Position numbers and translations under genes: made by a program. From IMG/VR virus record IMGVR_UViG_2837719392_000001: 64,000 nucleotides of DNA. One strand, 5' to 3'. Under the pieces are notes generated by a model that saw nothing but the letters and a program-made list of their open reading frames with translations, ran no database searches and had not been told where the DNA came from. The stretch comes from a virus. Its lineage: Duplodnaviria > Heunggongvirae > Uroviricota > Caudoviricetes. This document shows positions 5,995-22,848 of the stretch, one piece after another. The first letter of the stretch is position 1; each line of letters starts with the position of its first letter.

Positions 5995-6627
5995 CTAATG
6001 ATTCTTGATATATGCAAGATAAATGAATTCTAACATGGCTACGAGTCTTTCTGTTCTGACAGGGACAGATACTCTAGCTGTTTTCCCATCTCTTGTTTCT
6101 GAAACACCAATCATCCAGTTTCCTTCACGATTTCCTGGAGTGACTGTAAATGTTCTTTGGAATGCCTTCCCTTCAAATTCGGGTTGTTTAAATTCACTAA
6201 AGACTGCTGAAGCGAATTTTTTCTTTCCATCTCTCATGGCTTCTCTTTCTGTTGCTTCTAAATCAAAGATATAGCCTGACGTAAAGGCCCATCTTAAGTA
6301 TAGTAAATTCTTAAAATCCAAATAGTAAGGGATGAACGCCTTTTGTTTGTTGGATTCATCTAATTCGACGAAGTTCATATGAACCTTACAGTCCATACCT
6401 GCATCATCATCAACCAAATTAAATCCATCCTGTAAAACTTCTAGGAATACATCTCCTCCTGTTTTTCTTTGAGCATATACTTTATCAATTTTCTTAGCAT
6501 ATTCTTTCTTATCTTCCTTTTCTTTGACTTCAGTTTTAACTTCTGAACTCATAGTTTTAGGAGTATATGTTTTCATTTCTACTCCCTTGTTTTCTTTGTT
6601 TGCTTTTGCTTTGTCTTTTAATCCCAT
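5995..6627 (-). CDS. hypothetical protein (Lys/Glu-rich N-terminus)
   Basis: 210-aa ORF. No recognisable motifs. Confidence 0.45.
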   Translation of the reverse strand: MGLKDKAKANKENKGVEMKTYTPKTMSSEVKTEVKEKEDKKEYAKKIDKVYAQRKTGGDVFLEVLQDGFNLVDDDAGMDCKVHMNFVELDESNKQKAFIPYYLDFKNLLYLRWAFTSGYIFDLEATEREAMRDGKKKFASAVFSEFKQPEFEGKAFQRTFTVTPGNREGNWMIGVSETRDGKTARVSVPVRTERLVAMLEFIYLAYIKNH

Positions 6628-6746
6628 AGTTTTCCTCCTTTAAACAAAAAAGACACACATCATGTGCGTCTTTTCTTTCGTATATGATTTACATATATAT
6701 TTTATCATAAATCATTATTTCATTGTAAAGATAAATAATAATAATT

Positions 6747-6762
6747 TGGTCACTAGTGACCA
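6747..6762. repeat. parS-like perfect palindrome TGGTCACTAGTGACCA (copy 1), extended to a 24-bp palindrome AATTTGGTCACTAGTGACCAAATT; 3' of parB
   Basis: Exact self-complementary 16-mer. One of 5 identical copies in the window. Confidence 0.8.
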
Positions 6763-6770
6763 AATTTCAG

Positions 6771-7820
6771 TTAGTCAGCAATTTTGGATTTTAGAGTATT
6801 TAAAACTGTTTCGATTTCCTGAATACTATCTAGAATTTCCTTTCTCTCATTTTCATCCACTGTTATTTTTATTCCATCCATTTGTTGTACCTGTTTTTTT
6901 ATCTTATCAATGTTCTTGATTGCTTCAAATCCTTTCATTCGAGAAACCTTTTTTGGTTTTGATTCTTTGAAAGTCTTCAGATAAGCCTTGAATTCCTTGT
7001 CTGTCATTTTATTAGATTTTTCTAAAACATTTTTCTGCATCTCAAGAGGCATATCAGACACTATAAGTGCCTCACTTTTTGAAATATATTCTTTTTCATA
7101 ATATTGTCTCAACATTGGATGTCCGTTGTAGATTTTGTAATATTGTTTAATTGCTGTTCGCCCGAAACTATACCCCATATCCTTAAAGGCGTATTGTATC
7201 TGTTCAATTTTTTCTTTTTTAGGATTGAAAGATACATAATTTCCTTCATCATCTTTTTCAAATATAATATCAAAGCAACTAAACAACTCATCTAGTTCAA
7301 TTTTTCTGTTGTATGCATTGGTTTCAACAATAACTTCTTGAATTTCCTGCTCAGTTGTTCCTAAAGGTAAAACTGTACACCATACCTGAGAAAAACGCTC
7401 TGCGACTTTTTCGTTTCCTTCATCAATTGCAGAATTATGAATATTTGTAATAGCTTTAAAACGTCTTGAACCAGCTTTGATTTCATATTTCCCAGAAGGT
7501 TTACCATCCTCATTTTGTAGCGTCAGAATAATGATGGGTTGTAACTGTCCTAGTTTTTTTATTGATTTTTCTAGATAATAAGTCCCTTTCACTTTAAATG
7601 GATTAGCTGTGTTATCGACCAATTTATCTAATGTAATATATCTCGCATTTAATCTGGTTGTTTCAGCTAATGTTTTTTCTATATTATCGGCGTCTATTGC
7701 CATTCTTTGTTGAGGTGAAAACAAACTTGTGCTATGTTGGCTTTTACCCATTGAATTTATCGACTTTCTCTGCTTAGCCATTGCTTTCATCTCCTTTCTC
7801 GTTTTCTTCATCTTGTTCAA
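6771..7820 (-). CDS. parB: ParB-like partition protein (ParB/Srx N-terminal domain)
   Basis: 349 aa. GxxQPIIxxx...YEIxAGSRRFKAI ParB box. Overlaps parA end. True start may be a downstream Met (7781-7811). Confidence 0.75.
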   Translation of the reverse strand: MNKMKKTRKEMKAMAKQRKSINSMGKSQHSTSLFSPQQRMAIDADNIEKTLAETTRLNARYITLDKLVDNTANPFKVKGTYYLEKSIKKLGQLQPIIILTLQNEDGKPSGKYEIKAGSRRFKAITNIHNSAIDEGNEKVAERFSQVWCTVLPLGTTEQEIQEVIVETNAYNRKIELDELFSCFDIIFEKDDEGNYVSFNPKKEKIEQIQYAFKDMGYSFGRTAIKQYYKIYNGHPMLRQYYEKEYISKSEALIVSDMPLEMQKNVLEKSNKMTDKEFKAYLKTFKESKPKKVSRMKGFEAIKNIDKIKKQVQQMDGIKITVDENERKEILDSIQEIETVLNTLKSKIAD

Positions 7821-8736
7821 TGATTTCTTTTGCTAAAGAATATATGGCTTGTCTATATGATTGCCAAGCTTTGCCATTTTGTTGAACAGCAATCTCACCT
7901 GTTCCTGATAACTCTTTTAGCTTCAAGTTTCTTGGTATGATTGTTTTAAACATGTGAAGATTATTGTTACTAGCATAATCTGAAACCTCATCATAGGTTC
8001 TCTTGTCAAAATTCGTTTTTGCGAATTCATTGAAAAGCACCCCTCTTATTTTGAACATAGGAAGCACCTGACCTAAATCCTGTAAATTATCAAGAACCAT
8101 ATCAATTCCTAATGTACTTAATTGGTCTGTAATTGTTGGGATAATAATAGAGTCACATGCTAATAATGTACTAGTTACCAAGTATCCTAAATTTGGTGGA
8201 CAGTCAATAAAGATATAATCATAATCATACATCTTCTTGATTCTATTCACAATCATAGCTAATACTGCAGTTCCATATTGTCTATTTTCAGGCTGTATAA
8301 TAAAGGCGTCAGGTGGAGCTGCTGAATATATAAGTTCTGCTAATGATAAATCCTTACCAACGCTTGGAATTAAATCAAAGTAGAATTCCGTTTCTTTATC
8401 TTCCCATTGAATAGTTCCTTCTTTTCTTTGACTTTTTAGATATGTTGGGCGTATGATAGTTTCTTCAAAATCTTCATACTCAGGCAATTCCCCGAACCAT
8501 TGATATTTTTGTTCTAAATACCCTAACGTGCTGACTCCATCATCAACCTCAACTCTTCCGTTTTCCTTAATTGACATATTTGCCAAAAAGCTTAATGAAC
8601 ATTGGACATCGTTATCAATAACCAACACCTTCTTATTAAAATCTCTACCTAACGTCTCCGCTAGATTTATGGTTAATGTGGTTTTCCCGACACCACCCTT
8701 TGAATTATACATAGTAATAACTTTTGTATCGCTCAT
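7774..8736 (-). CDS. parA: ParA/Soj-family partition ATPase
   Basis: 320 aa. Deviant Walker A KGGVGKTT at the N-terminus. Confidence 0.85.
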   Translation of the reverse strand: MSDTKVITMYNSKGGVGKTTLTINLAETLGRDFNKKVLVIDNDVQCSLSFLANMSIKENGRVEVDDGVSTLGYLEQKYQWFGELPEYEDFEETIIRPTYLKSQRKEGTIQWEDKETEFYFDLIPSVGKDLSLAELIYSAAPPDAFIIQPENRQYGTAVLAMIVNRIKKMYDYDYIFIDCPPNLGYLVTSTLLACDSIIIPTITDQLSTLGIDMVLDNLQDLGQVLPMFKIRGVLFNEFAKTNFDKRTYDEVSDYASNNNLHMFKTIIPRNLKLKELSGTGEIAVQQNGKAWQSYRQAIYSLAKEIIEQDEENEKGDESNG

Positions 8737-8936
8737 TTCTTATCTACCCTTTCTATTCATTAAATAATTATAGCGAAATTAAATTATATAATCAAACCTT
8801 TTTATATAATATAGACTGATTAAAAAAGTGACTTTTAGAATTTTTTTAGATATTTGCGATTTTACAAGGAAACACATAGAAATCTTCACTTAGCGTATTC
8901 CTTACTATAACCTATCCAAACTCCATATATTAAAAA

Positions 8937-8952
8937 TGGTCACTAGTGACCA
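8937..8952. repeat. parS-like palindrome TGGTCACTAGTGACCA (copy 2), upstream of parA
   Basis: Exact 16-bp palindrome, flanked by AAA/TTT making a 22-bp palindrome. Confidence 0.8.
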
Positions 8953-9047
8953 TTTTTGTTTATTATTTATTTATTGCTAATATTGATATTATCCTTGCTA
9001 TCTTCTTTAATATCTTTTTAATGTATTTGATTTGTACTTATTGGATT

Positions 9048-9063
9048 TGGTCACTAGTGACCA
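9048..9063. repeat. parS-like palindrome (copy 3)
   Basis: Exact 16-bp palindrome. Confidence 0.8.
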
Positions 9064-9160
9064 TTTTTGAAAACATCATTTTCGCGCCCTCTGTCATTTA
9101 TGACAGTTTCTATCTATACCCTATATAACTTCATATTTCATATCGCATACTTGTATAATA

Positions 9161-9176
9161 TTGTTTCTTGGTCACT
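9161..9176. repeat. parS-like palindrome (copy 4)
   Basis: Exact 16-bp palindrome. Confidence 0.8.
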
Positions 9177-9199
9177 AGTGACCAAATTGAATTTATGAA

Positions 9200-11175
9200 G
9201 AATAAAGCATTGACTTTTAAAGGACTTCTTCCTTATGTCATATAAATTATAACTTTATATTCTAGGACGATTTTTTATTGTTTTATAAGGTTTTTCGATA
9301 GGTTTTTTTTAGTATTTTTCTCTTCTCTATATTTCTTTGGTTTTTTATACGTTTTATTCCATTTTTCTTTAGTTTCTATAATCATCTATCAATAATACCC
9401 CCCCTATTCTCGTCCCATTCAAACCCTACTCATCTCCCATTAATTCAAATGTATTTAGATAGAATTTGAATAGCTTATTCATTTAGACTCATTATGTATT
9501 CAACCCCTATTTATCTTCTATCCAACCTCCTTCATCCTCACAATTCATATTCTCACCATATCTGTCGATATCTTTTTCTCTATCCTTTATCTTATCATAT
9601 CCATACCACATCATATATGACGAGGATTGAGATAGAGTTTTATTAGGATTGTATATAAACACTCGTCTCTACTTCTTCACAAAAGAAAAGAGATGAAATC
9701 CTATCATTCCCCTATCTATTCCCTACAAGCTCAAGCTATACTTTAGTTGATATCCAGTAACGTTGTAGAGTGATGATAGAATATGGATAGAAAGAAGTCG
9801 CTTCTGTGCTAATTATTACCCTATACAAAAAGAATCCACACCTATTCATATCCTATCCAATTCCCCATAAATAAAGTAATGCTTTATAAAAGGATATTGA
9901 TAGAATTGAAATAGTATATCTATAAAAAAAACTAATCATAGACTTTACAATTGTACATAATCAATCCTATTTATAATCTATCAAATATCCTATACGTATA
10001 AAGTATGATGAATTGAATATAGCAAGGTTTTAAATAGATGCTGTGATATTTCTTTACAAAAGTCGTGATTAAAAACCTTTCATAATCTTTTACAATTCCT
10101 TCAGAACGAATCAGGAGTTGAAGGAATAGAAAAGAATTATAAAAGAATCTATCTTCTTCCCTCATTCTAAAAAGACTCTTTTCATATCCAAATATCTACA
10201 CCTTGTACCAATCTAAACCCTATCCAAACTCATTCAAGAACTCATTACATTATGAAAAGTTAAATTTAGATTTTGGGAAGGATAATATCCAGCTAAATTA
10301 TTGCTAAAGTATAACTTGAGTCATAGAAGAATTCTATCAATAATCTTTCAAGCTTCTTTCAGAGCTTTTATATAAGATAGGGTTAGTAGAGATAATGGAT
10401 TTTGATAGATGATGGATAGTATTTAGCTATGACATATAAAAATTATTATTTTATCAAAAAAGAAAATCCTATCAACTCTCTATCAAAATTCCTTCAATCT
10501 CAATTTATATAAAGTATAGCTTTAGTTATATAAACAACAACCCCTCATAAATTCCATTCATCTCCCATTCTGAATATAAAAATCTTATCGCATAGAAATA
10601 GTTTTAATAGAAGATAAAAAGAATATGAGGAGATTAAATGTACTTGGTATAAAATTATCAAATACCAATGTAACACCATCTAAACTCTTTTCAAAACAAA
10701 AAGATAACGATATCAGTTGAATAAGATAATGATAGAAGTAGGAGGGATGTGCAAAGAATCTTAATACACCATCAAAACTCTATCAAAAGCCTAATGATAT
10801 TGAATTGTAAAAGTTTGGATGATGATAGACTTTAGATGGGGTTGAAAGGGTTAAATTGATGGAAGGGTTTGGAAAGAATGTGGAGGGGTTCATATGAGCC
10901 TAAGAATAGGATAATGAGGGATATAGATAGACTCGTATTGGAAAAACAGTAAAAAAATACGATAAATCGCATATTTATCAAGAAAATAGTATTTTTAAGG
11001 AAAAAGAGGGAAAACCAATTAAAAACTATTAAAAAAACCAATAAGAAATAGGATAAAACTTAAAGTTATTATTCTTATTGTATAAGGAAGAAGTCCTCTT
11101 AAAGTCACTTTCATCAAACACTTAATTTATCCATCACAAAGAAGAATATGATACAATAGATACGTAATCTAATAC
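9200..11175. other. about 2-kb non-coding region with degenerate iteron-like repeats (ATCCTATC / CTATCAA(A) / TATCCAAACTC). Pyrimidine-rich top strand 9300-10600 switches to purine-rich at 10700-11050. Candidate replication origin and/or long ncRNA.
   Basis: No ORF >70 aa on either strand. Repeated motifs visible by eye. Ends at a strong intrinsic terminator. Confidence 0.35.
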
Positions 11176-11208
11176 GAATGGAGACATGTCATCGGCATGT
11201 CTCTTTTT
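11176..11208 (+). terminator. rho-independent terminator closing the non-coding region
   Basis: GAGACATG-n8-CATGTCTC hairpin followed by a T7 run. Confidence 0.6.
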
Positions 11209-11232
11209 TTGTAAAATTAAAGGAGGAATACA

Positions 11233-11890
11233 ATGAAGAAAAAGAAATGTCCAGTCTGCGGTGCATTACTAGACGAGGACAATGAATTAAGATGCAGTCG
11301 CTTTCCCATCTGCACCTTTCAAGAATCTACAAACACAAATCTAGAAAGATATATCATGTATGACCTTGAAACATCAGGATTTAAGGATAGTGACCATATC
11401 ATAGAAATTGGAGCTATTTATGTAGAGGATGGAAAGGTTGTGGATGGGTTTGATAAATTATGCAACCCTGGAATTTTCATCAATCAGAGAATCACTCAAG
11501 TAACAAACATTACAAATGATATGTTAAAGGACAAGGAGTCTGAAGAAAGTGTACTGAAGGAGTTTATCGAATGGGTCCACTCAAAGAATACAGACGTCTG
11601 TGTCGGTCATAACATTGACGCGTTCGATAACAGAATGTTAAACGCAGCATGCAAAAAATACAGACAGCAAATGCCATTCCATAGAACACTAGACACCCTC
11701 AAAATGGCAAGGAATCTAAAATTAAAGGAAAGGGGGGGTAGTCCAAGATTATAAACAGGAAACATTGGCAAATGAATATTGTCATTTTACATATTCAGCC
11801 CATAGAGCAATCCAAGACGTAGAAGCATTATTTAGAATTTTTGAAGTTTTAAGAAAGGAATATCAACAACTTCCAATTATCAATATCTGA
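11233..11890 (+). pseudogene. DEDDh 3'-5' exonuclease (DnaQ-like) with N-terminal zinc ribbon (CPVCG...C..C). Frameshifted in a G7 run at 11732-11738.
   Basis: Exo I DLETSG and Exo II GHNIDAFD are in frame 1, ending at 11754. The Exo III motif YCHFTYSAHRAIQDV continues in the -1 frame to TGA at 11888-11890. Removing one G restores a 218-aa protein. Confidence 0.65.
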
Positions 11891-11893
11891 TAA

Positions 11894-12604
11894 ATGGGAT
11901 TAAAACAGAAGTGTCTAAATAATGCAAAGAAATCTAACTATCTTGGAGATAAATGTTTTGAAGAAACATCTATGCACTACCTTGAAAATACTCAGATATT
12001 CAAAGACATGAATATTAGAGAAGTCGTTCATGATAGGTCGAGACAATTAAAAGGTATTGATGCTATAGGAAGCATAGGAAATCACAGCATCAATGTCGAT
12101 GTCAAGGCTATTGCATCTCAATTAAATACATTCTGCTTTGAAATAAGCGGTAATGTATCAACAAATCAGGTGGGATGGCTGATTAATCCAAAACTAGAAA
12201 CAACACATTATCTGATTGTCTATCACACAGTGAAAGGAGCTGAAAGAAATTACAGATTAGGAAAAAGAATTATGACAGTCAATAACGTGATAGAAACAGA
12301 AGCGTTGTTAATAGAAAAAGAAAAACTGAAGTCATTCATTCAAAAGGAATTAGGACAGAATCTTGATAGTGTTGTCAAGGAAATCAGAAAACAGGACTTA
12401 GAGGGTAGGGGAGTTGTAAGATTCAATAAAGAAATGAACGTAGTCAAAGGTACAGTGAATCAAAAGGCTTATCCTACAATTTCTCTAGGTTTAAAAGAAC
12501 AGCCTATCAATGTCGTTGTCAGAAAAGAAAGCTTAAAAGAATTAGCTGACAAGCATTGGATTATAGAAGATGAAAAGAATATGGTCACTAGTGACCAAAT
12601 CTAA
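11894..12604 (+). CDS. hypothetical protein. Its 3' end contains parS-like palindrome copy 5.
   Basis: 236-aa ORF, no clear motifs. The last codons ATGGTCACTAGTGACCAAATCTAA encode the palindrome. Confidence 0.45.
   Translation: MGLKQKCLNNAKKSNYLGDKCFEETSMHYLENTQIFKDMNIREVVHDRSRQLKGIDAIGSIGNHSINVDVKAIASQLNTFCFEISGNVSTNQVGWLINPKLETTHYLIVYHTVKGAERNYRLGKRIMTVNNVIETEALLIEKEKLKSFIQKELGQNLDSVVKEIRKQDLEGRGVVRFNKEMNVVKGTVNQKAYPTISLGLKEQPINVVVRKESLKELADKHWIIEDEKNMVTSDQI
12582..12597. repeat. parS-like palindrome (copy 5)
   Basis: Exact 16-bp palindrome TGGTCACTAGTGACCA. Confidence 0.8.
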
Positions 12605-12689
12605 AATTCACCTATTATCTTGCTAAAAAACATGATTAACTTTCACACATCAAAGAAAATATATGATATACTTTATGTGTAAATATTAT

Positions 12690-12730
12690 ACGAGAAGAGA
12701 TTCCTATTTTTAGTGAATCTCTTTTTTATT
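12690..12730 (+). terminator. hairpin + T-run (terminator/attenuator) immediately upstream of the SpoVG-like RBS
   Basis: AGAGATTC-n12-GAATCTCT followed by TTTTTTATTT. Confidence 0.5.
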
Positions 12731-12747
12731 TGAAGGAGGAAAATTTA

Positions 12748-13401
12748 ATGCCAAGTTTAAAAGGTAGAGCAAAAGCTAAAACAGAATCACAAGAAAAAGA
12801 AACTAAAACAGTAGATGTAAGAATGAGAAAAGTGGAATTTGAAAACAACCCATCACTTAAAGCATTCTTTACGGCTACAGTAACAGGATATCCAGTAGCT
12901 ACTAGAGTTACATTCACTGAAAAAGAAAAAGAAGAATCAGACGATACGGAAGAAATCAATCCAGATGACTTCAATATCTTATTCCAATCAAAAGTAGGTA
13001 AGGATGGTAAGCGATATCCATTGTTACATCCAATTGATGCAGAAACAAGAAATGATATTAAGTTAAATGTTTTGAGTGCATTTAAGAGATTCTTTGAAGA
13101 TGAAAAAGATGTATTTGTAGATGAAAACGACATTGCAGTATCTCAAGTTGCAGAGAAAAATTACTTTAAAGGTCAAGTTGGTGACGCACTCGTTCAAACT
13201 ACAAGAACAATGGCTTTAAAAGATATGGAATTACATGTCAATAAAGATGGTAATTACTATATTACTTATCCAAGTTATCCAAGTAAGCAAAAAAATGCTG
13301 AAGGAAAATATGATAGATTTCCATATTATTGGCCACAAAAAGATAGTGATACAACACAAGCTATCTTAGAAGCTGCAGTCAAAGAATATGAAAAAGCTTA
13401 G
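12748..13401 (+). CDS. SpoVG-like protein with repeated SpoVG-type modules
   Basis: VDVRMRKVEF...FFTATV...YPVATRV resembles the SpoVG N-terminus. Second and third repeats (KRYPLLHPIDAETRNDIKLNVLSAF; YYITYPSYPS...). Start moved to ATG with GGAGG RBS. Confidence 0.55.
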   Translation: MPSLKGRAKAKTESQEKETKTVDVRMRKVEFENNPSLKAFFTATVTGYPVATRVTFTEKEKEESDDTEEINPDDFNILFQSKVGKDGKRYPLLHPIDAETRNDIKLNVLSAFKRFFEDEKDVFVDENDIAVSQVAEKNYFKGQVGDALVQTTRTMALKDMELHVNKDGNYYITYPSYPSKQKNAEGKYDRFPYYWPQKDSDTTQAILEAAVKEYEKA

Positions 13402-13414
13402 AGCTAAATAAACG

Positions 13415-13450
13415 ATAGAAAAGGGATGCTCTGGCATCTCTTTTTTTATT
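13415..13450 (+). terminator. rho-independent terminator
   Basis: GGGATGC-TCTG-GCATCTC hairpin + T9. Confidence 0.55.
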
Positions 13451-13459
13451 TAATCGGAG

Positions 13460-14031
13460 GTGTTTCGTATTAGCCTAAAAAAAGTTTCACGTGAAACGAA
13501 ATCCATCAAAAAACTCCCATCAATCCAACTTTTTTTAGACGTCTCCTCTACAAACACAGGAGTTGCTATCTTGTTGGAAGATGGAAGGGTGATGATGGAC
13601 TCAATCAACCTCAAAAGATTCCAAAGACCACCCTGTATGTCTTTGACAGATTATGAAAAGGTCAAGATAGGAGTCATCAAGGAATATCTAGATAAGCTTG
13701 AAGAGAAATACAGGATTGATTTGGTGTGTGTTGAGGGTATATTCATTCGCCCTGGATATAATCAATCTTCTCAAATCCTTCTCAAACTCCACGGATTTTT
13801 GATGGGATATTTTCTGGATACACCATTCATATCAATACCACCATCAAACATAAAAAAGCTATAGCAGGGAAGGGTAATGCAAAAAAGGAAGAAGTGAGAG
13901 GAAGATTAGAAGAGGTATATCAATATCATTTTCGAAGTGATGATGAAAGTGATGCAATGGCCCTGCTCGTTACTTACAAAGGCCATAGTCAATATCAAAT
14001 AGAACAGAAGGAGGATACTTATGGAATATGA
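13460..14031 (+). pseudogene. RuvC-family Holliday-junction resolvase (phage-type). Frameshifted in an A6 run at 13852-13857.
   Basis: N-terminal LDVSSTNTGVAIL (RuvC motif I) in frame 1, ending at 13864. The C-terminal KKAIAGKGNAKKEEV...SDDESDAMALLV (RuvC motif IV) continues in the +2 frame to TGA at 14029-14031. Confidence 0.65.
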
Positions 14032-14608
14032 TACATTATATAAAGAAGTGCTAGGTAGACTGGATGCTTATAAGGACAATGAAAAGAAGATAAAAGACAC
14101 AGATGTCAATAAAAAAGCTTTTAATAAGATGTTATATAAGTATGAGGTTAATAACCAGACAGAAGAATTATCTGATGAGTTCAAGGAAAGTATTCAGTTG
14201 TTAAAGGATTCTGGATTAAGCTTGAACGATATCTTAACTGTACTTACTGTTTCAAGCAAAGAGATGAAACCTTTTTTAACCGAGGCTAAAAATGAGTTAA
14301 AAACTTTAGCAGAAACGAATGAAGAATTATATCAGGAAATTGGAAAGGTCATGTTGGAAGATGACAAAATGACTGAAAGAAGTATGCACTTCCCACATAT
14401 TGGAACAGTCAAAGTTGTAAGAGAAAAAGAAGTTAACATCACAGATGAAGACAAACTGATTGTTGAATTAGCAAAGAATAAAGACTGGCGAAATAAATAT
14501 TTAAAGATTTCAAAGACTGTCACAAAATTACCAGAGGCAAAAGATGGATTAATTGATGGAATCTCAATTGAAGAGAAATTCAAGGTCACAGTGAAGGCAG
14601 ATAAATAA
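14021..14608 (+). CDS. hypothetical coiled-coil protein (phage recombination-module context)
   Basis: 195-aa ORF, K/E-rich. Confidence 0.45.
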   Translation: MEYDTLYKEVLGRLDAYKDNEKKIKDTDVNKKAFNKMLYKYEVNNQTEELSDEFKESIQLLKDSGLSLNDILTVLTVSSKEMKPFLTEAKNELKTLAETNEELYQEIGKVMLEDDKMTERSMHFPHIGTVKVVREKEVNITDEDKLIVELAKNKDWRNKYLKISKTVTKLPEAKDGLIDGISIEEKFKVTVKADK

Positions 14609-14964
14609 TGGGATTAAAAGAACGAGTCCAAAAGCAAAGACAAAAGACTGAACAGTCTCCATCAAAAACCCAACAAAACTCCCCAATAGGAAATGAACTT
14701 GCTGGATATGTGCAATCATATCTTGCCTGGTTAAAGGTTCAAAATCCTAACTTTGCCGAAAACCTAACAACAGAAGAATTAGCCAATTATTTTTATGGGA
14801 AGGTCAAATTACCAGAGGAAATAATGATATACATGGAAAGCCATCCTCTCCAGACTCTTTCTAAAGTCTATGAATATATAGACCGTTACAAGGATAAGAC
14901 TGATATGTTTGCAATCAATAAAAAAATAGAACCCAAAGATAGAGGAAACTACAAGGAGGTATAG
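14608..14964 (+). CDS. hypothetical protein
   Basis: 118-aa ORF. ATGA overlap with the upstream gene. Confidence 0.45.
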   Translation: MGLKERVQKQRQKTEQSPSKTQQNSPIGNELAGYVQSYLAWLKVQNPNFAENLTTEELANYFYGKVKLPEEIMIYMESHPLQTLSKVYEYIDRYKDKTDMFAINKKIEPKDRGNYKEV

Positions 14965-15951
14965 ATGTATAAGAAGAAAGATTTCAACTTCCTAGAGAAA
15001 TATGAAAAGATATCTTTTAAGACAGGAATTATCCTTTGTACAGGAGAGTGGATTCACATCATCATCAACAGCCTTCAAGAATCTCACAAAATACAAACAG
15101 AATGTAGTCAGGATGTCTATTTCGACCTTAGAGATTTTCTAGGTAAGTATAAAAAGATTCATGGAAGCAGACATGTGTTTACAATTGGGAATGATGGATT
15201 GCATATCCAAACAAAAAAGACAGGAGAAGAAGAAATCATTGAAGTAGAGGAGGGGATAAAAGTATCTCCTCTGGTTCCAAAAGAAAAAGGATGTTATCTC
15301 AATGATTGTAACTTTAAACAGTTTGATATTCTTAGCTCCATTAACATGGATTTGAGTTATATCAGTTTTTTAAAGGATGCCTCGTTGGTGATAGATGATG
15401 ATAAATCCTATATCTGGAAAACAAATGGAATTACTGATATCTATATACAGATACCTTCATTTTCTAAACCAATGGGATATATTCCTCATAGCTTAATTTC
15501 ATTATTTGCCAATTGGCAAGGTAAAGAAGCGTATATCAGCATTGAAAAGAATGTACCAGGTATTGGGGTGAATAATCTTGTGTTACATGATGATGAAAAC
15601 ATCTTAGCTGTAGCAATGAATAGAAATCAGGAATACAACACCTATGAACTTCCATCATCTTCTCAACAATACGTCTTAACCAATGAAGAGCTGAAAAACC
15701 TTCAAAGCATCAAGTTTAAGAAGTTATTAGCTCAGATAAAGAAGGAAAAGAATCTGAAAACAAGTTATGAAGTATATGTTGAGATTGTTGATGGGATTTG
15801 GTATATGAATGAAGAGAAATTCTTTGAAACAGAAGGGAAGATAACAACACGACGCTATGAAGGCTATAAACTTGCCACATTCATTAACAATGCTAAACAC
15901 TTAACAGTTCATGATACTTATCTACAAGATGGAAATATTTATTTCATATAA
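14965..15951 (+). CDS. hypothetical protein
   Basis: 328-aa ORF, tightly packed in an operon. Confidence 0.45.
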   Translation: MYKKKDFNFLEKYEKISFKTGIILCTGEWIHIIINSLQESHKIQTECSQDVYFDLRDFLGKYKKIHGSRHVFTIGNDGLHIQTKKTGEEEIIEVEEGIKVSPLVPKEKGCYLNDCNFKQFDILSSINMDLSYISFLKDASLVIDDDKSYIWKTNGITDIYIQIPSFSKPMGYIPHSLISLFANWQGKEAYISIEKNVPGIGVNNLVLHDDENILAVAMNRNQEYNTYELPSSSQQYVLTNEELKNLQSIKFKKLLAQIKKEKNLKTSYEVYVEIVDGIWYMNEEKFFETEGKITTRRYEGYKLATFINNAKHLTVHDTYLQDGNIYFI

Positions 15952-15954
15952 ACG

Positions 15955-15990
15955 AAAAAGTCCCCTTATTGGGGACCTCTTTTTTTATTT
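15955..15990 (+). terminator. rho-independent terminator
   Basis: GTCCCC-TTATT-GGGGAC + T9. Confidence 0.6.
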
Positions 15991-16455
15991 ACTGAAAGTT
16001 TTGACTGTTCCTTGTAATACCTCTAGCATCTTTCCAGAATCTGTATCTTTGGCGGCCGAAATAGAGGTTAGTTTGCTATTGCTAACTAATTCATTTCTTT
16101 CTTCAAGATATACTTCTGAATATGCCTGCATTGTTGCCACATAATCCATATACTTATCAGAAAAGGCATCTAATATTTCTAAATCTAGGTTAACTCGATT
16201 TGATGCAATCTGATAAACATCATCCAAATACTTAACAGTCACAACCTGTTTTTGAGTATTCGTATCTGCTTTTTTCATATTTGTTTCATAAATATCTTCT
16301 GCTTTTTGAATCAATTCATAATCGCTTTGAACATTACTTAATTCGACTTCACTATAATCCATTGTTTTGCTGGAATCTATACTTTGCTTACATCCTAGAA
16401 GAGAAAAACAGAGAAGTAAGCAAATCACAGCCTTGAATAATCTTGATATTTTCAT
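15985..16455 (-). CDS. lipoprotein (signal peptide + LLGC lipobox)
   Basis: N-terminus MKISRLFKAVICLLLCFSLLGC. Confidence 0.55.
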   Translation of the reverse strand: MKISRLFKAVICLLLCFSLLGCKQSIDSSKTMDYSEVELSNVQSDYELIQKAEDIYETNMKKADTNTQKQVVTVKYLDDVYQIASNRVNLDLEILDAFSDKYMDYVATMQAYSEVYLEERNELVSNSKLTSISAAKDTDSGKMLEVLQGTVKTFSK

Positions 16456-16457
16456 AA

Positions 16458-17434
16458 CTATTTCACTGACTTAATAATATTCTTGACTTTATTCTGATAG
16501 CTTTTAGATGTGCTAGCTGAATTACCAGCGGAACTAATAGCTTTCTGTGCTGAAATTATCTGTTTTCTTAATGTATTATAGTTCTTTTGAATTGTTGTAT
16601 TTTGTTTCGCTGCAGCAGAGCCAAAGGCAGAATTATTTTGTTTGCTATTAGCAATATTATTGTTATTTTGTGCTGTTGATGAATTTTTATCATTCTTCAT
16701 CTCATTATTCTTTTTATCTATTGCTTGTTGATTCGCTTGTTGCTTTGAAGCTGTATCGGATGCATTGTTTTGCGCATTTTCCTCACTTTTGGATAGACTC
16801 CCTCCAAATTCTTTTGATTGACTTTCCTTATCTGTTAATGATTGTTGTTTCTGTTGGTCTTTGATGGCATTATAATCATCTTTACTGGCTAAGCTTTCAT
16901 CACCAAAAGCCTCAGCAAATGTCTCATTACCATCCTCGATTTTCAGTATGCTGTCTTCTTCCTCTTTTTGACTAGCTTCCTGTTGTTCTAGTTCTTTAGC
17001 TTTTTCTTCATCACTGACTCCTCCAACTGCATCAGCAAGACTATTCATAGTACTCGTATTTGCGTTAACTGTATAATAGCCTTGAGCTATCTGATTGATT
17101 TCATTTTGTAAAGCCTGATTTTCTTTATCTGCCTGAATACTTTTCAAATACGCTTGAAATCCTTTGCCTGCATTTGTTTCTTCATCTAAAGACCCGTATT
17201 GTGCCTGAAGATTTTGAAAATTCTGTTTAGCTTCTCCAAATAGAGAATAAGCTTCTTCTTGTATATCAAAAGGTTGTTCCTTTCTTGCCTCATTGCTATT
17301 ATCTTCTGACTTGAATCTTTCCTCGGCAGATTGTGTTGCATTTGTCTGCGAACTTTCTAGGGGGTTTGTAGCAAAGACAGGGGTAGGGGCTATCATGAAT
17401 AGAGATAAAGCACCTGCAAAAAACTTTTTATTCA
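16458..17434 (-). CDS. secreted Q/N/S/K-rich low-complexity protein
   Basis: GTG start with GGAGGTGA RBS. Signal peptide KKFFAGALSLFMIAPTPVFA. Confidence 0.5.
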
Positions 17435-17591
17435 CCTGTATCACCTCCACACTTTATTTTATCATACATAGGCTTCAATTCGATTTTCCTCAGATTGATG
17501 AATAGTTGATACAATAGTGTAAGGATAAAAACTTGAGAAAGTCATGGAAATGAGTTTTTGTCACTACACCAATAACAAAAGAGGTGATGAA

Positions 17592-18344
17592 ATGAAACAG
17601 ATTTATTTTTATGGAAATACAGCACAATGCCAATGTGATAAACAGGAAGATGCTATCTTTATGAGTGAATTAGAAGATTATTACATACTGATGATTGCTG
17701 ATGGTAATGGAGAACAGGCAGGGGACATCAATACTGGTCAGCTTGCCATAAACATCATGTTCAACTATCTACAAAAAATCATTACACCTTATTCCTCTTT
17801 ACAGGATATTAGAGATTCGATGGATTTTGGCATGTTTATAGTATCGCAGTCATTTCTGTCAATTAATGCTATCTCTGAAAAATATAGAAACATCTATGCA
17901 TCATTGGCAGTTGTTATCATTTCTAAGACAACACAAAAAATGATGTTTGCCAGTACAGGGAATACTGAATTGCAATTGATACGCAATGGTAAACTTCAAA
18001 GAATCAACAGAATCTATTCAGATGCCTATGAAGCTCTGCAAAGAGGAGAGATAGAAGAAAGGGATTTCTATATTCATCCTGGCAGAAGTATGTTAACAAG
18101 TGCAATAGGAGTCTTTCCAGATGTCTCAGCTGATATCATGCTGTTTGGAGAATTACAGGAAAAAGATATCTTTATTTTAAGTACAGACGGTGTCTATCGT
18201 TATCTAAATCCTGATGAAGTCATTTCTATCCTTGGAGAAGCATCCAATATTCAGGAAGGAGTGAATCAAATCTTAACAGAAATAAATGATAAAGGTGGCG
18301 AAGACAATGCCTCTTTAATAGTGGGACATCTGTTCAATCAGTAA
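17592..18344 (+). CDS. PP2C-family Ser/Thr protein phosphatase
   Basis: IADGNGEQAGD, STDGVY, GGEDNASLIV PP2C motifs. GAGGTGA RBS. Confidence 0.7.
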   Translation: MKQIYFYGNTAQCQCDKQEDAIFMSELEDYYILMIADGNGEQAGDINTGQLAINIMFNYLQKIITPYSSLQDIRDSMDFGMFIVSQSFLSINAISEKYRNIYASLAVVIISKTTQKMMFASTGNTELQLIRNGKLQRINRIYSDAYEALQRGEIEERDFYIHPGRSMLTSAIGVFPDVSADIMLFGELQEKDIFILSTDGVYRYLNPDEVISILGEASNIQEGVNQILTEINDKGGEDNASLIVGHLFNQ

Positions 18345-18465
18345 AAATACGATTTTACACAACTTGAAAATGAAATGATATAATGATTGAGATGTCAGAT
18401 TTGTTTTAGGCAAATACAGATACATCAAAATTATTTATGTAGCAAAGGCTACGGAGGATTTACAA

Positions 18466-18753
18466 ATGAATAAAATTATGAAGATTGGAAGTGGTATTGA
18501 AAGAGTAGACGGAGAAGCAAGAGAAGTGACAGCTTATGTAAGTAAATGTAGCACTTCATTAACAAGATTGTTAGAAGGAAACGACCCGGTAACAATCAAA
18601 GCTATGGGAAATAGAGCCATTGCTAACACAATGAAAGTTATTGCTAGAGTTCACAAAACTGTCCCTTTAAAATTAGATGCTCCAGTGTTCTTAGATGAAC
18701 AGGTTGGCGAATCTGAATTAGCAGTATTCAACATCACAGTAGAAAAAGCATAG
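18466..18753 (+). CDS. SpoVS-like protein
   Basis: 95 aa with the SpoVS pattern (KIGSG...AMGNRAIANTMKVIARV...ELAVFNITVE). Extended -10 promoter TGATATAAT upstream. Confidence 0.5.
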   Translation: MNKIMKIGSGIERVDGEAREVTAYVSKCSTSLTRLLEGNDPVTIKAMGNRAIANTMKVIARVHKTVPLKLDAPVFLDEQVGESELAVFNITVEKA

Positions 18754-18757
18754 TTCA

Positions 18758-19135
18758 ATGGATAATGGACAGTTAGAAGACTGGGGACAAATCATTCTTA
18801 TTTGCCCTTGTCATATAAAAGAAGCGAAGGAATGTGAAGATATTAGAAAAATGAAAGATATGACCATGAAGATGGTCAATGGATATAGAAATGTCAATTT
18901 TCAATGTCCTTACTGCACAAACAGCTTTGATTATGAAGTGAAAATTAAACTCTTTGAACTTCTTAACAAATACTTTCAAAACAACCAGACATATGTGGGA
19001 TTTAACAAGTATGTAAGTAGGAAAGGGGAAAGGATTCGTTTAAGATATATCAAAGAAATGAAAACTAACACAGGAAAAGCAATCATTATCGAAGCGGCTA
19101 ATCTCACACAACATCCAAGCTTTAAAAATGCTTAG
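18758..19135 (+). CDS. hypothetical Cys-rich (CPCH...CPYC) zinc-finger protein
   Basis: 125-aa ORF. Confidence 0.4.
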   Translation: MDNGQLEDWGQIILICPCHIKEAKECEDIRKMKDMTMKMVNGYRNVNFQCPYCTNSFDYEVKIKLFELLNKYFQNNQTYVGFNKYVSRKGERIRLRYIKEMKTNTGKAIIIEAANLTQHPSFKNA

Positions 19136-19160
19136 GACTCTGATGAGTCCTTTTTTTGTT
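19133..19160 (+). terminator. rho-independent terminator
   Basis: GGACTC-TGAT-GAGTCC + T7. Confidence 0.6.
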
Positions 19161-19455
19161 GAAAAATGAGAAGAAGTCGTTTATAATAGTTATTGGGTAA
19201 ATAAAAAAACAAAACACAGCAAATTTTTCAATGAAAACTAGCTAAAACATCTTGATTTTTAAATAGCAAAGATGTATTATAGTTATGCATTGATAATGCT
19301 TTTACGTACAAATTAAAGATTATGAAAAGTGCATGTATGAAGGCATGACCATTATTCAATGGTGATGCTGTGTATCGCCTTATTTACCCAACAAATAGGT
19401 CGTGACTTCGTACATGCATTTTTATTTTATAAAAAAGAAAGGAGGATAGATATTC

Positions 19456-21078
19456 ATGGACAAATATTATAAATATGAAGACAAAATAGTCAATTCCTTT
19501 CTTTTTGTACCAAAGTTCTTGTTTTCTGACGAACGCTTTATGAAGTTAAGTGTCACAGAGAAACTGATTTATTCCTTATATCTACACAGATATACAATAA
19601 GCCAATATCATGACGAGATAGGACGATATATCATTTTTACTGATGATGATATTGTTGACAAACTTTACATCACTTCAAGGACTTGTATCAGAGCTAGAAA
19701 AAAACTCGAAGAAGCAAATCTCATCAAAATCCAAAAAACTCTAACATATAACAAAATCTATCTTGTTAATGTACTTAAAGCTTCTGAAAGTGAACATTTC
19801 TTTAACGAAAATGATTTGGAGGGATTAAAATTTTATCAGTTCCCAAGAGAATTCTTTGAAGATACTTATAAAAACTTAACACTGAATGCCAAGATGGTCT
19901 ATACAGTTTTTCTAGATACTTTAACTCTTAGTCAAATGAATTACTTTGTAGATTCTAACAAAAGGATTTATTTTCAGGAGAACATGGACATACAGATAAA
20001 AAAACTAAATCTAACAAAGCCAACAATACGTGAGGCAAGATACCTCTTGATGGTATGTGGATTGTTGTTAGAGTATAAAACATTCACTGAAGATATCAGA
20101 TATTATCCATTAAAGTTGTCTCACTTTACAGATAGAACTGCTGAATATAAAAAATGTAAAACAGCAAAAGAGAAGAAAGAATTTATAGAGATGACAACAA
20201 AACAAGACAAAGATGAGTTAATACTGAATCCATTAAAAATAGGTGTAAAACTTAAGGACTATAGAAAAGACGCAGGACTTACACAGACAAGACTAATCTC
20301 TTTATTAAGAGAAAAAAATGTAGATATTACTCAGCAGACTTATTCTTCATATGAAAATGGAAAGTTACATATCAAAAAAGAACTTTATGATATCTGTTTA
20401 GAGTGCATACAGGACGAAAAGAAAAAATTGTCTGAGTATACAAGACCAAAAGAAAATATTGTCATGAATGACAACTCTAAAGAAAAAAATTGTCATGACA
20501 TACAAGCTGAAAACAAAGAAATGTCATTAGTGGAAGAAAAATTATTCACGAATGAAAAGAAAGAATTGACATCTCCTGAAAGAAAAGAAAGTCATATAAA
20601 TTATACTTATACAAACAAAAAAGAAAATAATTATAATGAAAAATTAATAGAATTAATTAATTATATTAATAACATTATAAATACTTCACATATTCTTTTA
20701 GAAGAAAAAGATTACTTAACTGCATGTTTTGATAAGCTTCGTATATATAAACGATTCTATCTCAATACTTCACAAGAACTATTCACAACAGAAAGATTAT
20801 ATGAAGTCTTACAGAAGATGAATGAAAGAAATAAAGTTGAAGAGGTGTGTTTGAAGATTTTAGATAGAATTGAAACTAGCCATTATCAATTTAAGACACC
20901 TGATTCAGCCATCAATTGTTTTATTACTTTCTTGCTTAATGAACTAAAAGTAGAGGAAAAACAAGCTGATGATGTCCCAGAATGGTTTTCTAAAAAGAAA
21001 TTTCAGTTTGGTAGATTACCTGAACGTCATGTTGATGTATCTGATGATATAAAAAATTTAAAATGGTGGGAGGATTAA
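19456..21078 (+). CDS. RepA_N-family plasmid replication initiator. Duplicated RepA_N module plus central XRE-type HTH and long K/E/N-rich C-terminus.
   Basis: YKYEDKIVNSFLFVPKFLFSDERFMKLSVTEKLIYSLYLHRY matches the RepA_N signature. Second copy YQFPREFFEDTYKNLTLNAKMVYTVFLD. AAAGGAGG RBS. Confidence 0.7.
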   Translation: MDKYYKYEDKIVNSFLFVPKFLFSDERFMKLSVTEKLIYSLYLHRYTISQYHDEIGRYIIFTDDDIVDKLYITSRTCIRARKKLEEANLIKIQKTLTYNKIYLVNVLKASESEHFFNENDLEGLKFYQFPREFFEDTYKNLTLNAKMVYTVFLDTLTLSQMNYFVDSNKRIYFQENMDIQIKKLNLTKPTIREARYLLMVCGLLLEYKTFTEDIRYYPLKLSHFTDRTAEYKKCKTAKEKKEFIEMTTKQDKDELILNPLKIGVKLKDYRKDAGLTQTRLISLLREKNVDITQQTYSSYENGKLHIKKELYDICLECIQDEKKKLSEYTRPKENIVMNDNSKEKNCHDIQAENKEMSLVEEKLFTNEKKELTSPERKESHINYTYTNKKENNYNEKLIELINYINNIINTSHILLEEKDYLTACFDKLRIYKRFYLNTSQELFTTERLYEVLQKMNERNKVEEVCLKILDRIETSHYQFKTPDSAINCFITFLLNELKVEEKQADDVPEWFSKKKFQFGRLPERHVDVSDDIKNLKWWED

Positions 21079-21094
21079 ACCCACCTTTTCTTAT
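21063..21094 (+). terminator. rho-independent terminator after the initiator gene
   Basis: GGTGGGAGG-n-CCCACC + TTTTCTT. Confidence 0.5.
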
Positions 21095-21235
21095 ATTCCT
21101 AAATTTCGGATTTTCCTAAACTATCATAAATAATGGTATAATATAACTGTATTAATAAACGATTTCCAGAGATTACATTTTTGTAGTCTCTTTTTTCTTT
21201 TAGGAGGGAAAAGGAAAACGTGGAAAGGAGTAAAT

Positions 21236-22271: not shown

Positions 22272-22354
22272 CGTCCTCGTGATGGAACTGGTAGACATGC
22301 ATGGCTTAGACCCATGTGCTTATGCGTAAGGGTTCGAATCTCTTCGAGGACACC
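22272..22354 (+). tRNA. tRNA-Leu (anticodon TAG), class II
   Basis: Acceptor GTCCTCG/CGAGGAC, anticodon stem CATGG/CCATG with loop CTTAGAC, T-loop TTCGAAT, CCA encoded. Confidence 0.75.
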
Positions 22355-22398
22355 AATATCACTCCAATTCTTGTAAAGAGTGAATATATGAAATTATA

Positions 22399-22471
22399 TG
22401 AACATCTAGCATAATGGAAATGCGTAGGGTTCAGCGCCCTTCATGATACTGGTTCAAGTCCAGTGGTGTTC
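22399..22471 (+). tRNA. tRNA-like gene with atypical anticodon arm (loop TTCAGCG, identity unresolved), no encoded CCA
   Basis: Acceptor GAACATC/GGTGTTC (7 bp incl. G-U), D-arm GCAT/ATGC, T-arm ACTGG-TTCAAGT-CCAGT. Anticodon stem has a mismatch and a 6-nt variable region. Confidence 0.4.
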
Positions 22472-22521
22472 AAATACCAGATTAGAAATAAGGCTAAAAC
22501 AGGGATAATCATATCCCTACA

Positions 22522-22661
22522 TGGTCCTTTAGCTCAGTAGGTAGAGCAGATGACTGTTATACATCACTACATCAAATAAAGACAGTTAAGTACGTGATGT
22601 ATGTCAACACTTTGTGTTGACAAATCATAGCTTGCAGGTTCGAATCCTGTAGGGACCACCA
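22522..22661 (+). tRNA. tRNA-Asn (GTT) gene interrupted by about 67-nt insertion at the 3' side of the anticodon loop (about 22559-22625)
   Basis: 5' half GGTCCTT-TA-GCTC-AGTAGGTA-GAGC-A-GATGA-CTGTTA. 3' half TCATA-GCTT-GCAGG-TTCGAAT-CCTGT-AGGGACC-A-CCA. Near-identical to the intact paralog at 23946. Insert has two perfect hairpins. Confidence 0.6.
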
Positions 22662-22688
22662 AATATACATTTTTTGTGACAAACAATA

Positions 22689-22766
22689 TTGGTGAGTAGC
22701 GTAGTTGGTTAGCGCAATCGGCTGTTAACCGATGGGTCGTGGGTTCAAGTCCCACCTCGCCAGCCA
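22689..22766 (+). tRNA. tRNA-Asn (GTT)
   Basis: U1-A72, loop CTGTTAA, T-arm GTGGG-TTCAAGT-CCCAC, discriminator G, CCA. Confidence 0.8.
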
Positions 22767-22767
22767 T

Positions 22768-22843
22768 GGCCTGTTCGTCTAAAGGTTAGGACACAACCCT
22801 TTCACGGTTGCAATGTTGAGTTCAAGTCTCACACAGGTCGCCA
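22768..22843 (+). tRNA. tRNA-Glu (TTC)
   Basis: Acceptor GGCCTGT/ACAGGTC, loop CTTTCAC, CCA. Confidence 0.8.
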
Positions 22844-22848
22844 AAAAT

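Follow-up and report, generated by a model that had tools for sequence, protein, structure and literature searches.

Introduction

Plasmids of the RepA_N type carry their origin of replication inside the initiator gene: in pSK41, four Rep boxes lie centrally in rep, in DNA encoding a dispensable domain, and the C-terminal domain of the Rep protein is host-specific and binds DnaG (PMC5703833). The iterons of this family are described as semi-palindromic repeats around a poly-A tract, and some phages belong to the family as well (PMC7145576). Inocles (Kiguchi et al. 2025) are plasmid-like giant elements from oral Streptococcus, circular, 245-395 kb in length and with 32% G+C; they are intracellular, carry VirB4/VirD4 and are marked by InoC, a protein of ~454 amino acids (aa) with an N-terminal Replic_Relax domain (PF13814) (PMC12340149). 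Hodors (Yuan et al. 2026, preprint) are conjugative megaplasmids of the human gut with a Rep_3 initiator and 45% G+C, and elements like them are routinely mistaken for huge phages (PMC12934698). Here we analyze a 64,000-nt stretch of DNA (hereafter, the window), deposited as virus record IMGVR_UViG_2837719392_000001, which carries a RepA_N-family initiator gene (repA), a ParABS partition system and a tRNA array, and which belongs to an element of ~256.5 kb. With moderate confidence, we read the element as giant and plasmid-like, and this stretch as its replication-and-segregation core of the RepA_N/ParABS type.

Positions below follow window numbering, and labels of the form L001 denote contigs from other assemblies. 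The inspected stretch covers window coordinates -8.7 to +95 kb, that is, ~104 kb or ~40% of the element. Judged against the published description, the element resembles Inocles in being circular and hundreds of kilobases long (256.5 kb versus 245-395 kb), in its 32% G+C and variable tRNA numbers, and in encoding a Pol III alpha subunit, an exonuclease, a RecD-like helicase, signal peptidase S26 (PF10502) and cell-wall/surface proteins; like Inocles, it is missing from isolate genomes and reference plasmid/phage collections, and most of its genes are unannotated. However, it comes from the gut (chicken, and human according to an unconfirmed label) rather than from saliva, and was binned with a metagenome-assembled genome (MAG) of Erysipelotrichales, whereas the host of Inocles is Streptococcus. 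Furthermore, neither an InoC-like Replic_Relax protein (PF13814; scanned proteins and precomputed tables) nor VirB4 or VirD4 was found in the ~104 kb. Given the different habitat and putative host and the lack of InoC in the inspected stretch, we claim resemblance to Inocles rather than membership. With Hodors, the element shares a size of >200 kb, residence in gut Bacillota, a tendency to pass for a huge phage, ParA/ParB, an extensive non-coding, A+T-rich region close to the replication genes and surface-protein modules. Membership among Hodors was nevertheless rejected, because these use Rep_3 and have 45% G+C, in contrast to RepA_N and 32% G+C here, and there is no detectable sequence relationship.

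An extrachromosomal element of about 256.5 kb

The window is densely coding, with ~32% G+C, and values of 30-35% hold across the window and all loci. Dozens of metagenome contigs from ENA and Logan carry identical or near-identical proteins. In two independent assemblies (ENA ERZ27270337 k95_33852 and ERZ28645010 SUEZ18-1_SAMEA4845283 scaffold_8), the contigs measure 256,567 and 256,509 nt and do not start at the same point, one 536-aa gene being located at ~137.7 kb on one and at 2.3 kb on the other. Such permuted starts imply a circular or circularly permuted genome of ~256.5 kb and indicate that the element maps as a circle; circularity had been named as a point to check in a preliminary description, made from the window sequence alone. 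One contig of the element sits in the chicken-gut MAG Candidatus Massilimicrobiota merdigallinarum (Erysipelotrichales). The remaining samples appear to be gut-derived, one of them from a human-gut study, judging from unconfirmed sample labels.

Core chromosomal genes on the contig would have spoken against an extrachromosomal nature, but no rRNA, ribosomal-protein, DnaA or DnaN genes were found across the ~104 kb. DnaA boxes are no more frequent than chance predicts, and neither the spacer between parA and the neighboring exonuclease gene nor repA has one; the hallmarks of a chromosomal origin (a DnaA-box cluster, dnaA/dnaN and core genes nearby) are absent from the inspected stretch. The DnaE of the element shares no more than 35% identity with any cellular, phage or plasmid DnaE found; searching GTDB with it returned one MAG contig along with ordinary chromosomal DnaEs at 28-35% identity. 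The ~256.5-kb permuted contigs, the lack of core genes in the ~104 kb, the divergent DnaE, and the putative RepA_N origin and ParABS system described below together support an extrachromosomal replicon of gut Bacillota/Firmicutes, as the preliminary description had proposed, rather than a piece of host chromosome. The alternative that the window is part of a host chromosome or chromid near its origin, with parAB corresponding to chromosomal soj/spo0J, could draw on the position of parAB next to a skew switch, on a canonical-type parS core at 13484 and on cell-type genes (FtsH, signal peptidase, DnaE, Topo, NrdD). Set against the above observations, against the absence of the RepA family among NCBI-derived proteins, and against the look of a genuine chromosomal context, which is quite different, it is extremely improbable and close to refuted.

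No relatives of RepA were found among GTDB representative genomes, and none of RepA or DnaE among INPHARED/GenBank phages; searches of IMG/VR with RepA, DnaE and a RepA alignment were equally negative, and megablast of 25 kb against GenBank phages yielded tRNA matches only. A search of JGI metagenomes returned just two contigs, with 94% and 38% RepA identity. When RepA, DnaE and ParA were compared with phages and plasmids, identities were at most 39% over short stretches and 28-34% in long alignments, and the matches leaned to neither collection. The plasmid and phage reference collections that were searched do not contain the element.

A RepA_N initiator with a putative origin inside its gene

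RepA, a protein of 540 aa, was described beforehand as a RepA_N-family initiator with a duplicated N-domain and a helix-turn-helix (HTH), and all three parts of this description were borne out. The RepA_N profile PF06970, for which the Pfam gathering score is 30 bits, is matched well above that score and in two stretches (Table 1), and the N-domain matches the solved N-domains of pSK41 and pTZ2162 RepA (4PT7, 4PQL, 5KBJ; phmmer, 2.5e-8). The fold matches staphylococcal RepA with a Foldseek probability of 1.0 and a template-modelling (TM) score of 0.61-0.65 at 28% sequence identity. In an AlphaFold model based on 11 homologues, two winged-helix domains are followed by the HTH, a disordered stretch (residues 329-391) and a helical C-terminal domain; the prediction confidence (pLDDT) is only 69 for the whole model and ~25 for the linker. 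The family alignment shows the linker to be hypervariable and the flanks on both sides to be conserved. The family comprises 11 clusters, all from unannotated metagenome assemblies, and a precomputed PF06970 match is present in 11 of 11.

The DNA that encodes the beginning of the linker contains four A-tract repeats, with TGTC(A/T) cores at 20429, 20460, 20491 and 20522, that is, with an exact 31-bp phasing. The repeats are read in frames 1, 2, 0 and 1, which argues that the repeat is kept at the DNA rather than the protein level. In each unit, an A-tract precedes a partial dyad (TTGTCATGAATGACAA or TGTCATGACA), giving semi-palindromic, iteron-like A-tract repeats (AAAAGAAAATATTGTCATGAATGACAA and AAAGAAAAAAATTGTCATGACA). 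About 75 bp downstream of the repeats follows an A+T-rich tract, a candidate DNA-unwinding element, which is kept in all five lineages compared (5/5). A repeat array is present at the equivalent place of repA in four further lineages, designated here by their RepA identity: 68% (L017), 61%, 47% (L016) and 39%; L077 and L076 are the contigs of the other two. Repeats of the 68% lineage and of the 47% lineage are spaced ~31-33 bp apart, as are, judged by eye, those of the 61% lineage, whereas the 39% lineage has three repeats, 52 and 73 bp apart. The core of the 68% lineage, (A/T)TGTC, is a variant of that in the window; the 61%, 47% and 39% lineages have cores of their own (TTGNCAY, TGAAACAAT and AATCGCAA).

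This layout matches both that of pSK41 (PMC5703833) and the published description of RepA_N iterons (PMC7145576), and by analogy the origin of replication most likely lies inside repA, at ~20.4-20.7 kb. With the RepA_N theta replicons pSK41, pSK1, pTZ2162 and pAD1, the element shares a winged-helix initiator recognizable by sequence and fold, direct A-tract repeats with a partial dyad that are central in rep and encode a variable linker, a C-terminal domain conserved within the lineage, and an associated Walker-type partition system. In contrast to these replicons, its RepA is 540 aa rather than ~320 aa long, has a duplicated winged-helix domain and an extra XRE-type HTH, and is only ~28% identical to staphylococcal RepA; repA is ~10.7 kb away from parAB instead of adjoining it, and the replicon is ~256 kb in size and has genes of its own for DnaE, an exonuclease and SSB. 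No region for antisense-RNA control was identified.

The parA-exonuclease spacer and GC skew

The largest non-coding stretch, a spacer of 2.5 kb with 28% G+C (8737-11232), separates parA from the exonuclease gene, and it is here that both bulk GC skew and gene orientation flip. The spacer yielded no Rfam match. It holds 17 copies of the 8-mer YCTATCHA, compared with 30 in the remaining 61.5 kb; Markov simulation gives an expectation of 1.3 +/- 1.1 (maximum, 8), and the enrichment is 14-fold. Several pairs of the motif are 11 bp, or one helical turn, apart. The motif persists in the 68% lineage and gives way to TACCTATA in the 47% lineage, changing together with the divergence of RepA.

These features raise the alternative that the spacer is the origin and YCTATCHA the iterons of the initiator, the repeats in repA being incidental or regulatory. 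Such an origin would be flanked by parS-like sites (6747-9184 on one side, 12582 on the other), and the three DNA-binding modules of RepA could read two kinds of sites. However, the precedent among RepA_N replicons is an origin inside rep (PMC5703833), the spacer is devoid of DnaA boxes, and the skew itself reads differently once split by codon position. At positions 1 and 2, it is constant, with a G excess of ~+0.19 on the coding strand in every gene group; the bulk skew thus follows the coding strand, and its switch at 10 kb was dropped as an indication of the origin. At third positions, the coding-strand skew differs between groups. Genes left of 8.7 kb, like the plus-strand genes past 25 kb, have values of ~+0.10 to +0.12; minus-strand genes at 52-64 kb have -0.06, and those on the plus strand at 11-21 kb have ~0. 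Two minus-strand genes are located at 16-17.5 kb and, with +0.16, resemble leading-strand genes. In a change-point scan of the third-position skew on the top strand, the sign switch is best placed at 19-28 kb, and a switch at 10 kb is worse by 5-8 log-likelihood (lnL) units. The pattern recurs in the 68% lineage. We consider an origin in the spacer possible but doubtful.

The third-position switch near repA and the tRNA array moderately favors an origin near repA. Some observations weigh against this placement: the optimum of the third-position skew, at 25.6 kb, is ~5 kb away from the iterons and depends partly on one gene; the 47% lineage lacks the pattern; and the flip of bulk skew and orientation, together with the significant YCTATCHA array, could mark the spacer as the real origin or a second one. 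The YCTATCHA array, next to parS-like sites, is most likely not the origin but an additional protein-binding platform, which would serve partition-complex architecture, copy control or handcuffing. In such purine-loaded genomes, bulk GC skew can misplace the origin.

A ParABS system with a putative element-specific centromere

The ParA, ParB and parS-like sites named in the preliminary description were all recovered, and the par locus has the standard ParABS layout with a putative centromere specific to the element. ParA (320 aa) carries the deviant Walker A motif KGGVGKT at residues 13-19, which fits KGGxxK[ST], and has a ~50-aa insertion and no N-terminal HTH. ParB scores slightly below the Pfam cut-off for ParB_N (26.3 bits) and has no significant sequence match in PDB, but its match to phrog_4715 spans residues 14-332 and it carries an arginine motif of the GxxRxxA type (GSRRFKA) at residue 117. 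As other assemblies call a ParB of 336-339 aa, the real start of parB is probably an internal ATG near 7781. The perfect 16-bp palindrome TGGTCACTAGTGACCA occurs five times within 5.9 kb (Table 1), against an expected count of 0.14 even if 3 mismatches are allowed. The three copies upstream of parA are identical in L004, L005 and L006, and parS-like sites are also present in the lineages with 94% (L078) and 68% (L017) RepA identity.

A further site, GTTTCACGTGAAAC, is located at 13484-13497, within the first codons of the RuvC-like gene. We take it to be the 14-bp core of the canonical chromosomal parS of Firmicutes, TGTTNCACGTGAAACA. It is identical in nucleotide sequence, including synonymous positions, in lineages down to 38% RepA identity (L078:4027, L017:4074, L016:3992 and L079:3822), and may recruit host Spo0J/SMC or serve as a second site for the element's own ParB.

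The deviant Walker A ParA, the arginine motif of ParB (whose ParB_N score is sub-threshold) and the 16-bp palindromic centromere-like sites grouped at the par operon are shared with type I ParABS systems (Soj/Spo0J-parS, P1 and F). The half-sites of TGGTCACTAGTGACCA are related to those of the canonical TGTTNCACGTGAAACA, but the element's centromere has a 2-bp central spacer. Also unlike these systems are the size of ParA, its insertion and missing HTH, its identity of at most 31% to any ParA from PLSDB or phages, and the presence of one conserved canonical parS core alongside the element's own sites.

Phage or plasmid

The preliminary description had offered a phage-plasmid or megaplasmid as its overall reading. 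The extrachromosomal, plasmid-type replicon in this reading stands, but the phage half found no support: in the ~104 kb, neither the precomputed Pfam tables nor PHROG scans covering 96 proteins revealed a terminase, portal, capsid, sheath, baseplate or credible tail gene, the families that came up being those of DNA metabolism only, and no relatives were found in IMG/VR or among GenBank phages. Among 57 unannotated proteins, matches to structural PHROG categories were limited to an Ig-domain family (6e-6) and a 'tail' family (6e-4).

Several considerations weigh against a plasmid-like nature. VirB4, VirD4 and relaxase genes are not found in the inspected ~104 kb either, where the only conjugation-type gene, located past the tRNA array, encodes topoisomerase III (Topo III; Toprim_Crpt, DUF3945). 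A virion module could lie in the ~60% of the element beyond this stretch, and a circular assembly would be equally expected from a circularly permuted phage genome. Huge phages, too, typically have a large tRNA array, dnaE and nrdD split by introns or inteins, and a replisome of their own.

The corresponding alternative is a phage-plasmid or temperate huge phage, which would persist as a low-copy plasmid prophage by means of RepA_N and ParABS and package its genome in circularly permuted form, with the genes for virion and lysis located in the other ~150 kb. Consistent with such a life style are the 26-28 tRNAs, the HNH/GIY-YIG inserts that split dnaE and are variably present between assemblies, the nrdD intein with its LAGLIDADG endonuclease, the element's own DnaE, SSB, RecJ, RecD2, RuvC and exonucleases, the many open reading frames (ORFs) without known relatives, the permuted 256.5-kb contigs, which fit headful packaging equally well, and the occurrence of some phages within the RepA_N family (PMC7145576). 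However, besides the lack of virion genes across 104 kb and of RepA and DnaE relatives in INPHARED and IMG/VR, the accessory genes are of plasmid and cell-envelope types. Moreover, similar giant elements first called huge phages turned out to be megaplasmids (PMC12934698), and similar elements of 32% G+C are intracellular and carry VirB4/VirD4 (PMC12340149). We therefore regard the phage-plasmid alternative, including the placement of virion and lysis genes in the remaining ~150 kb, as unlikely, and retain the giant plasmid-like element as the preferred reading.

Replisome, tRNA array and other genes

The element carries its own DnaE, SSB, RecJ, RecD2, RuvC-like protein and exonucleases; the features assigned to coordinates are collected in Table 1. 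The dnaE gene had been described as intron-containing. It is indeed split by inserts with endonuclease genes, but none of these matches an Rfam model for group I or group II introns, even at E <= 1. L011 and L012 have no GIY-YIG domain at the insert position, and in L012 no gene is called there; with their presence varying between assemblies, the inserts look mobile. At L073:14905-18285, or ~+89 to +92 kb of the window, an intein that carries a LAGLIDADG endonuclease interrupts NrdD (anaerobic ribonucleotide reductase); next come genes for an HNH endonuclease and for Mrr-type restriction.

Table 1. Features of the window and their coordinates
Feature	Position	Strand	Evidence or remark
RecJ	1285-3099	-	Confirmed by profile search
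NT5C-like protein	Grouped with RecJ and RecD2	-	Confirmed by profile search
RecD2	3708-5954	-	Confirmed by profile search
Conserved 210-aa protein	5995-6627	-	Immediately downstream of parB; in every assembly of the lineage
parS-like palindrome 1 (TGGTCACTAGTGACCA)	6747-6762		Directly past the parB 3' end
parB	6771-7820	-	ParB_N 25.1 bits; phrog_4715 1.2e-14
parA, deviant-Walker-A ATPase	7774-8736	-	AAA_31 3e-30; CbiA 4e-19; phrog_164 1.5e-43
Three parS-like palindromes upstream of parA	8937-8952, 9048-9063, 9169-9184		111 and 121 bp apart
Non-coding DNA, ~1.9 kb	9211-11107		Contains the YCTATCHA array; 54-nt inverted repeat at the ends (9211-9264 / 11054-11107)
Conserved promoter-like block	11150-11232	+	Upstream of the exonuclease gene
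Hairpin followed by T-run	11180-11204	+	Ahead of the exonuclease gene
DnaQ-like 3'-5' exonuclease, N-terminal Zn-ribbon	11233-11900	+	RNase_T 2.3e-22
Conserved 236-aa protein	11894-12604	+	3' end holds parS-like palindrome 5
parS-like palindrome 5	12582-12597		Inside the 3' end of ORF 11894-12604
Weakly SpoVG-like protein	12730-13401	+	PF04026 27.3 bits (cut-off 29.6); 'faint' in precomputed tables
RuvC-like Holliday-junction resolvase	13460-13864	+	phrog_159 2e-8; weak precomputed PF02075 match
Conserved syntenic block	14021-19135		Order constant in lineages with 38-68% RepA identity
Weakly PP2C/SpoIIE-like protein	17544-18344		Weak match; within block 14021-19135
Weakly Alba-like protein, 95 aa	18466-18753		Alba E 1.2e-3
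Cys-rich protein, 125 aa	Within 14021-19135		Member of the block
repA, RepA_N initiator, 540 aa	19456-21078	+	PF06970 61.2 bits in two stretches
repA, winged-helix domain 1 (WH1)	19495-19767	+	Winged-helix domain
repA, winged-helix domain 2 (WH2)	19792-20130	+	Winged-helix domain
repA, XRE-type HTH	20239-20379	+	HTH_3/HTH_31, residues 262-308
repA, disordered linker	20413-20631	+	Hypervariable, low pLDDT
Iteron-like array inside repA	20415-20540		Four A-tract + TTGTCAT(GA) semi-palindromic repeats
A+T-rich tract inside repA	20596-20700		90% A+T overall, 95% in a 40-nt window
repA, conserved helical C-terminal domain	20632-21075	+	Family alignment, model
tRNA array	22273-28600	+	Downstream of repA and three small ORFs; arrangement family-wide
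Second DnaQ-like exonuclease	49468-50001		1.3e-14; outside the 5995-21100 region
dnaE, three collinear ORFs	58065-63994	-	Split by inserts with HNH and GIY-YIG endonuclease genes

The protein encoded directly downstream of parB (5995-6627) has no Pfam or PHROG match. Both DnaQ-like exonucleases and the RuvC-like resolvase of the preliminary description were recovered by profile searches. Of its two sporulation labels, SpoVG survives as a sub-threshold resemblance, whereas SpoVS could not be confirmed, the only match being the weak one to Alba. Compared with other assemblies (L001), the exonuclease gene at 11233 has one surplus G near 11732 in the window and is frameshifted, so that the ORF here spans 11233-11754 and encodes 173 aa instead of the intact 218 aa, with loss of the C-terminal catalytic motif; this is either a pseudogene or an assembly error. 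[quoted passage not shown] The gene order from the exonuclease to RepA, the three small ORFs and the tRNA array is conserved down to 38% RepA identity.

The tRNA array, likewise noted in the preliminary description, contains 26 tRNAs according to ARAGORN plus two detected by Rfam only. The latter have insertions of ~55-60 nt after the anticodon, and a putative UAA-suppressor tRNA (anticodon tta) is an ARAGORN call that Rfam does not share and that is found again in L078, the 94% lineage; these three unusual loci are at 22523-22658, 23552-23680 and 24433-24505. As stop codons, the window uses TAA 33 times, TAG 19 times and TGA 6 times. Between tRNA genes, at 28294-28447, a hairpin unit, GATGATAG-N7-CTATCATC, is repeated four times with a 45-bp period, compared with just one or two copies in related lineages.

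Five otherwise unrelated proteins, RecD2 included, share the N-terminus MGLK (ATGGGAYTNAAA), far above chance (starts at 5954(-), 6627(-), 11894(+), 14608(+) and 55736(-)); in distant lineages, this start is kept only by a 118-aa protein. It could reflect a translation-initiation preference or a common N-terminal tag.

Past the tRNA array, the element encodes flotillin, a MoxR/VWA pair, a radical-SAM/SPASM enzyme, a prepilin peptidase, FtsH and signal peptidase S26. Plasmid-like accessory genes comprise type I restriction-modification, a YoeB/Phd toxin-antitoxin pair in some variants, and NERD and Mrr nucleases, and surface-type proteins are represented by YkuD, Big_2, CAP and SpaA; signal peptidase, FtsH and Topo III also count among these genes. 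A three-gene module at 41142-42930 encodes a 318-aa unannotated protein, a 100-aa DUF4325/STAS-like protein and a 170-aa protein; it occupies another position in another assembly (L070:2717-4500), which suggests a mobile, possibly defence-related, cassette. Tandem paralogue families are present in 34460-37884 (34460/35007 and 36067/36553/37007), the latter appearing from their sequences to be short membrane proteins, and no dispersed paralogues were detected in the element. An AAA_14/DUF4143 ATPase (L069:10001-11326, ~+73 kb of the window) has thousands of homologues at ~86% identity. The one homologue that was looked at (87%; L080) lies in an ordinary bacterial chromosome context with 43% G+C; the element's copy has drifted to 31.5% G+C, which suggests that the gene was taken up from a cellular genome long ago. 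It provides no clue to the host, as the 87% homologue belongs to an unrelated chromosome.

Mechanism and implications

From the observed domains, sites, statistics, conservation and co-variation, and the circular map, we infer the binding and functional steps as follows. By analogy with pSK41, one or both winged-helix domains of RepA would bind the four 31-bp-phased, A-tract semi-palindromic iterons, which sit in repA itself, in the DNA for what would be a dispensable, disordered linker. RepA would then melt the adjoining tract of 90-95% A+T, and its C-terminal domain would bring in priming and helicase-loading functions. Theta replication would follow, probably with the element's own DnaE, DnaQ-like exonuclease and SSB. 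For segregation, ParB would load at the TGGTCACTAGTGACCA sites around parAB, and the Walker-type ParA would separate the copies, with the RuvC-like resolvase, RecJ and RecD2 processing recombination intermediates and multimers.

The RepA_N/ParABS module is of a known kind; new are its variant features and its carrier. The former are an initiator with duplicated winged-helix domains and an HTH, a motif array beside the centromere, and a conserved canonical parS core, and the latter is a 256-kb genome with its own replisome and tRNA array. A bolder proposition, which we consider rather unlikely, is that the element represents the first jumbo (~256 kb) phage-plasmid of Bacillota or a new giant autonomous family, combining RepA_N/ParABS, a replisome, a near-complete set of tRNAs and use of host Spo0J/SMC through the parS core in the RuvC-like gene.

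It is only recently that giant extrachromosomal elements came to light in Gram-positive commensals (Inocles in 2025, Hodors in 2026), and tools for virus detection often misjudge them as huge phages. For a gut family of such elements, the locus described here offers a testable maintenance mechanism, with an in-gene RepA_N origin, element-specific parS sites and a possible link to host segregation. To our knowledge, few genetic tools are available for Erysipelotrichales, and the repA and par parts could be used for mini-replicons in these bacteria. RepA, the parS palindrome and the iterons provide markers for relatives of the element and for incompatibility groups.

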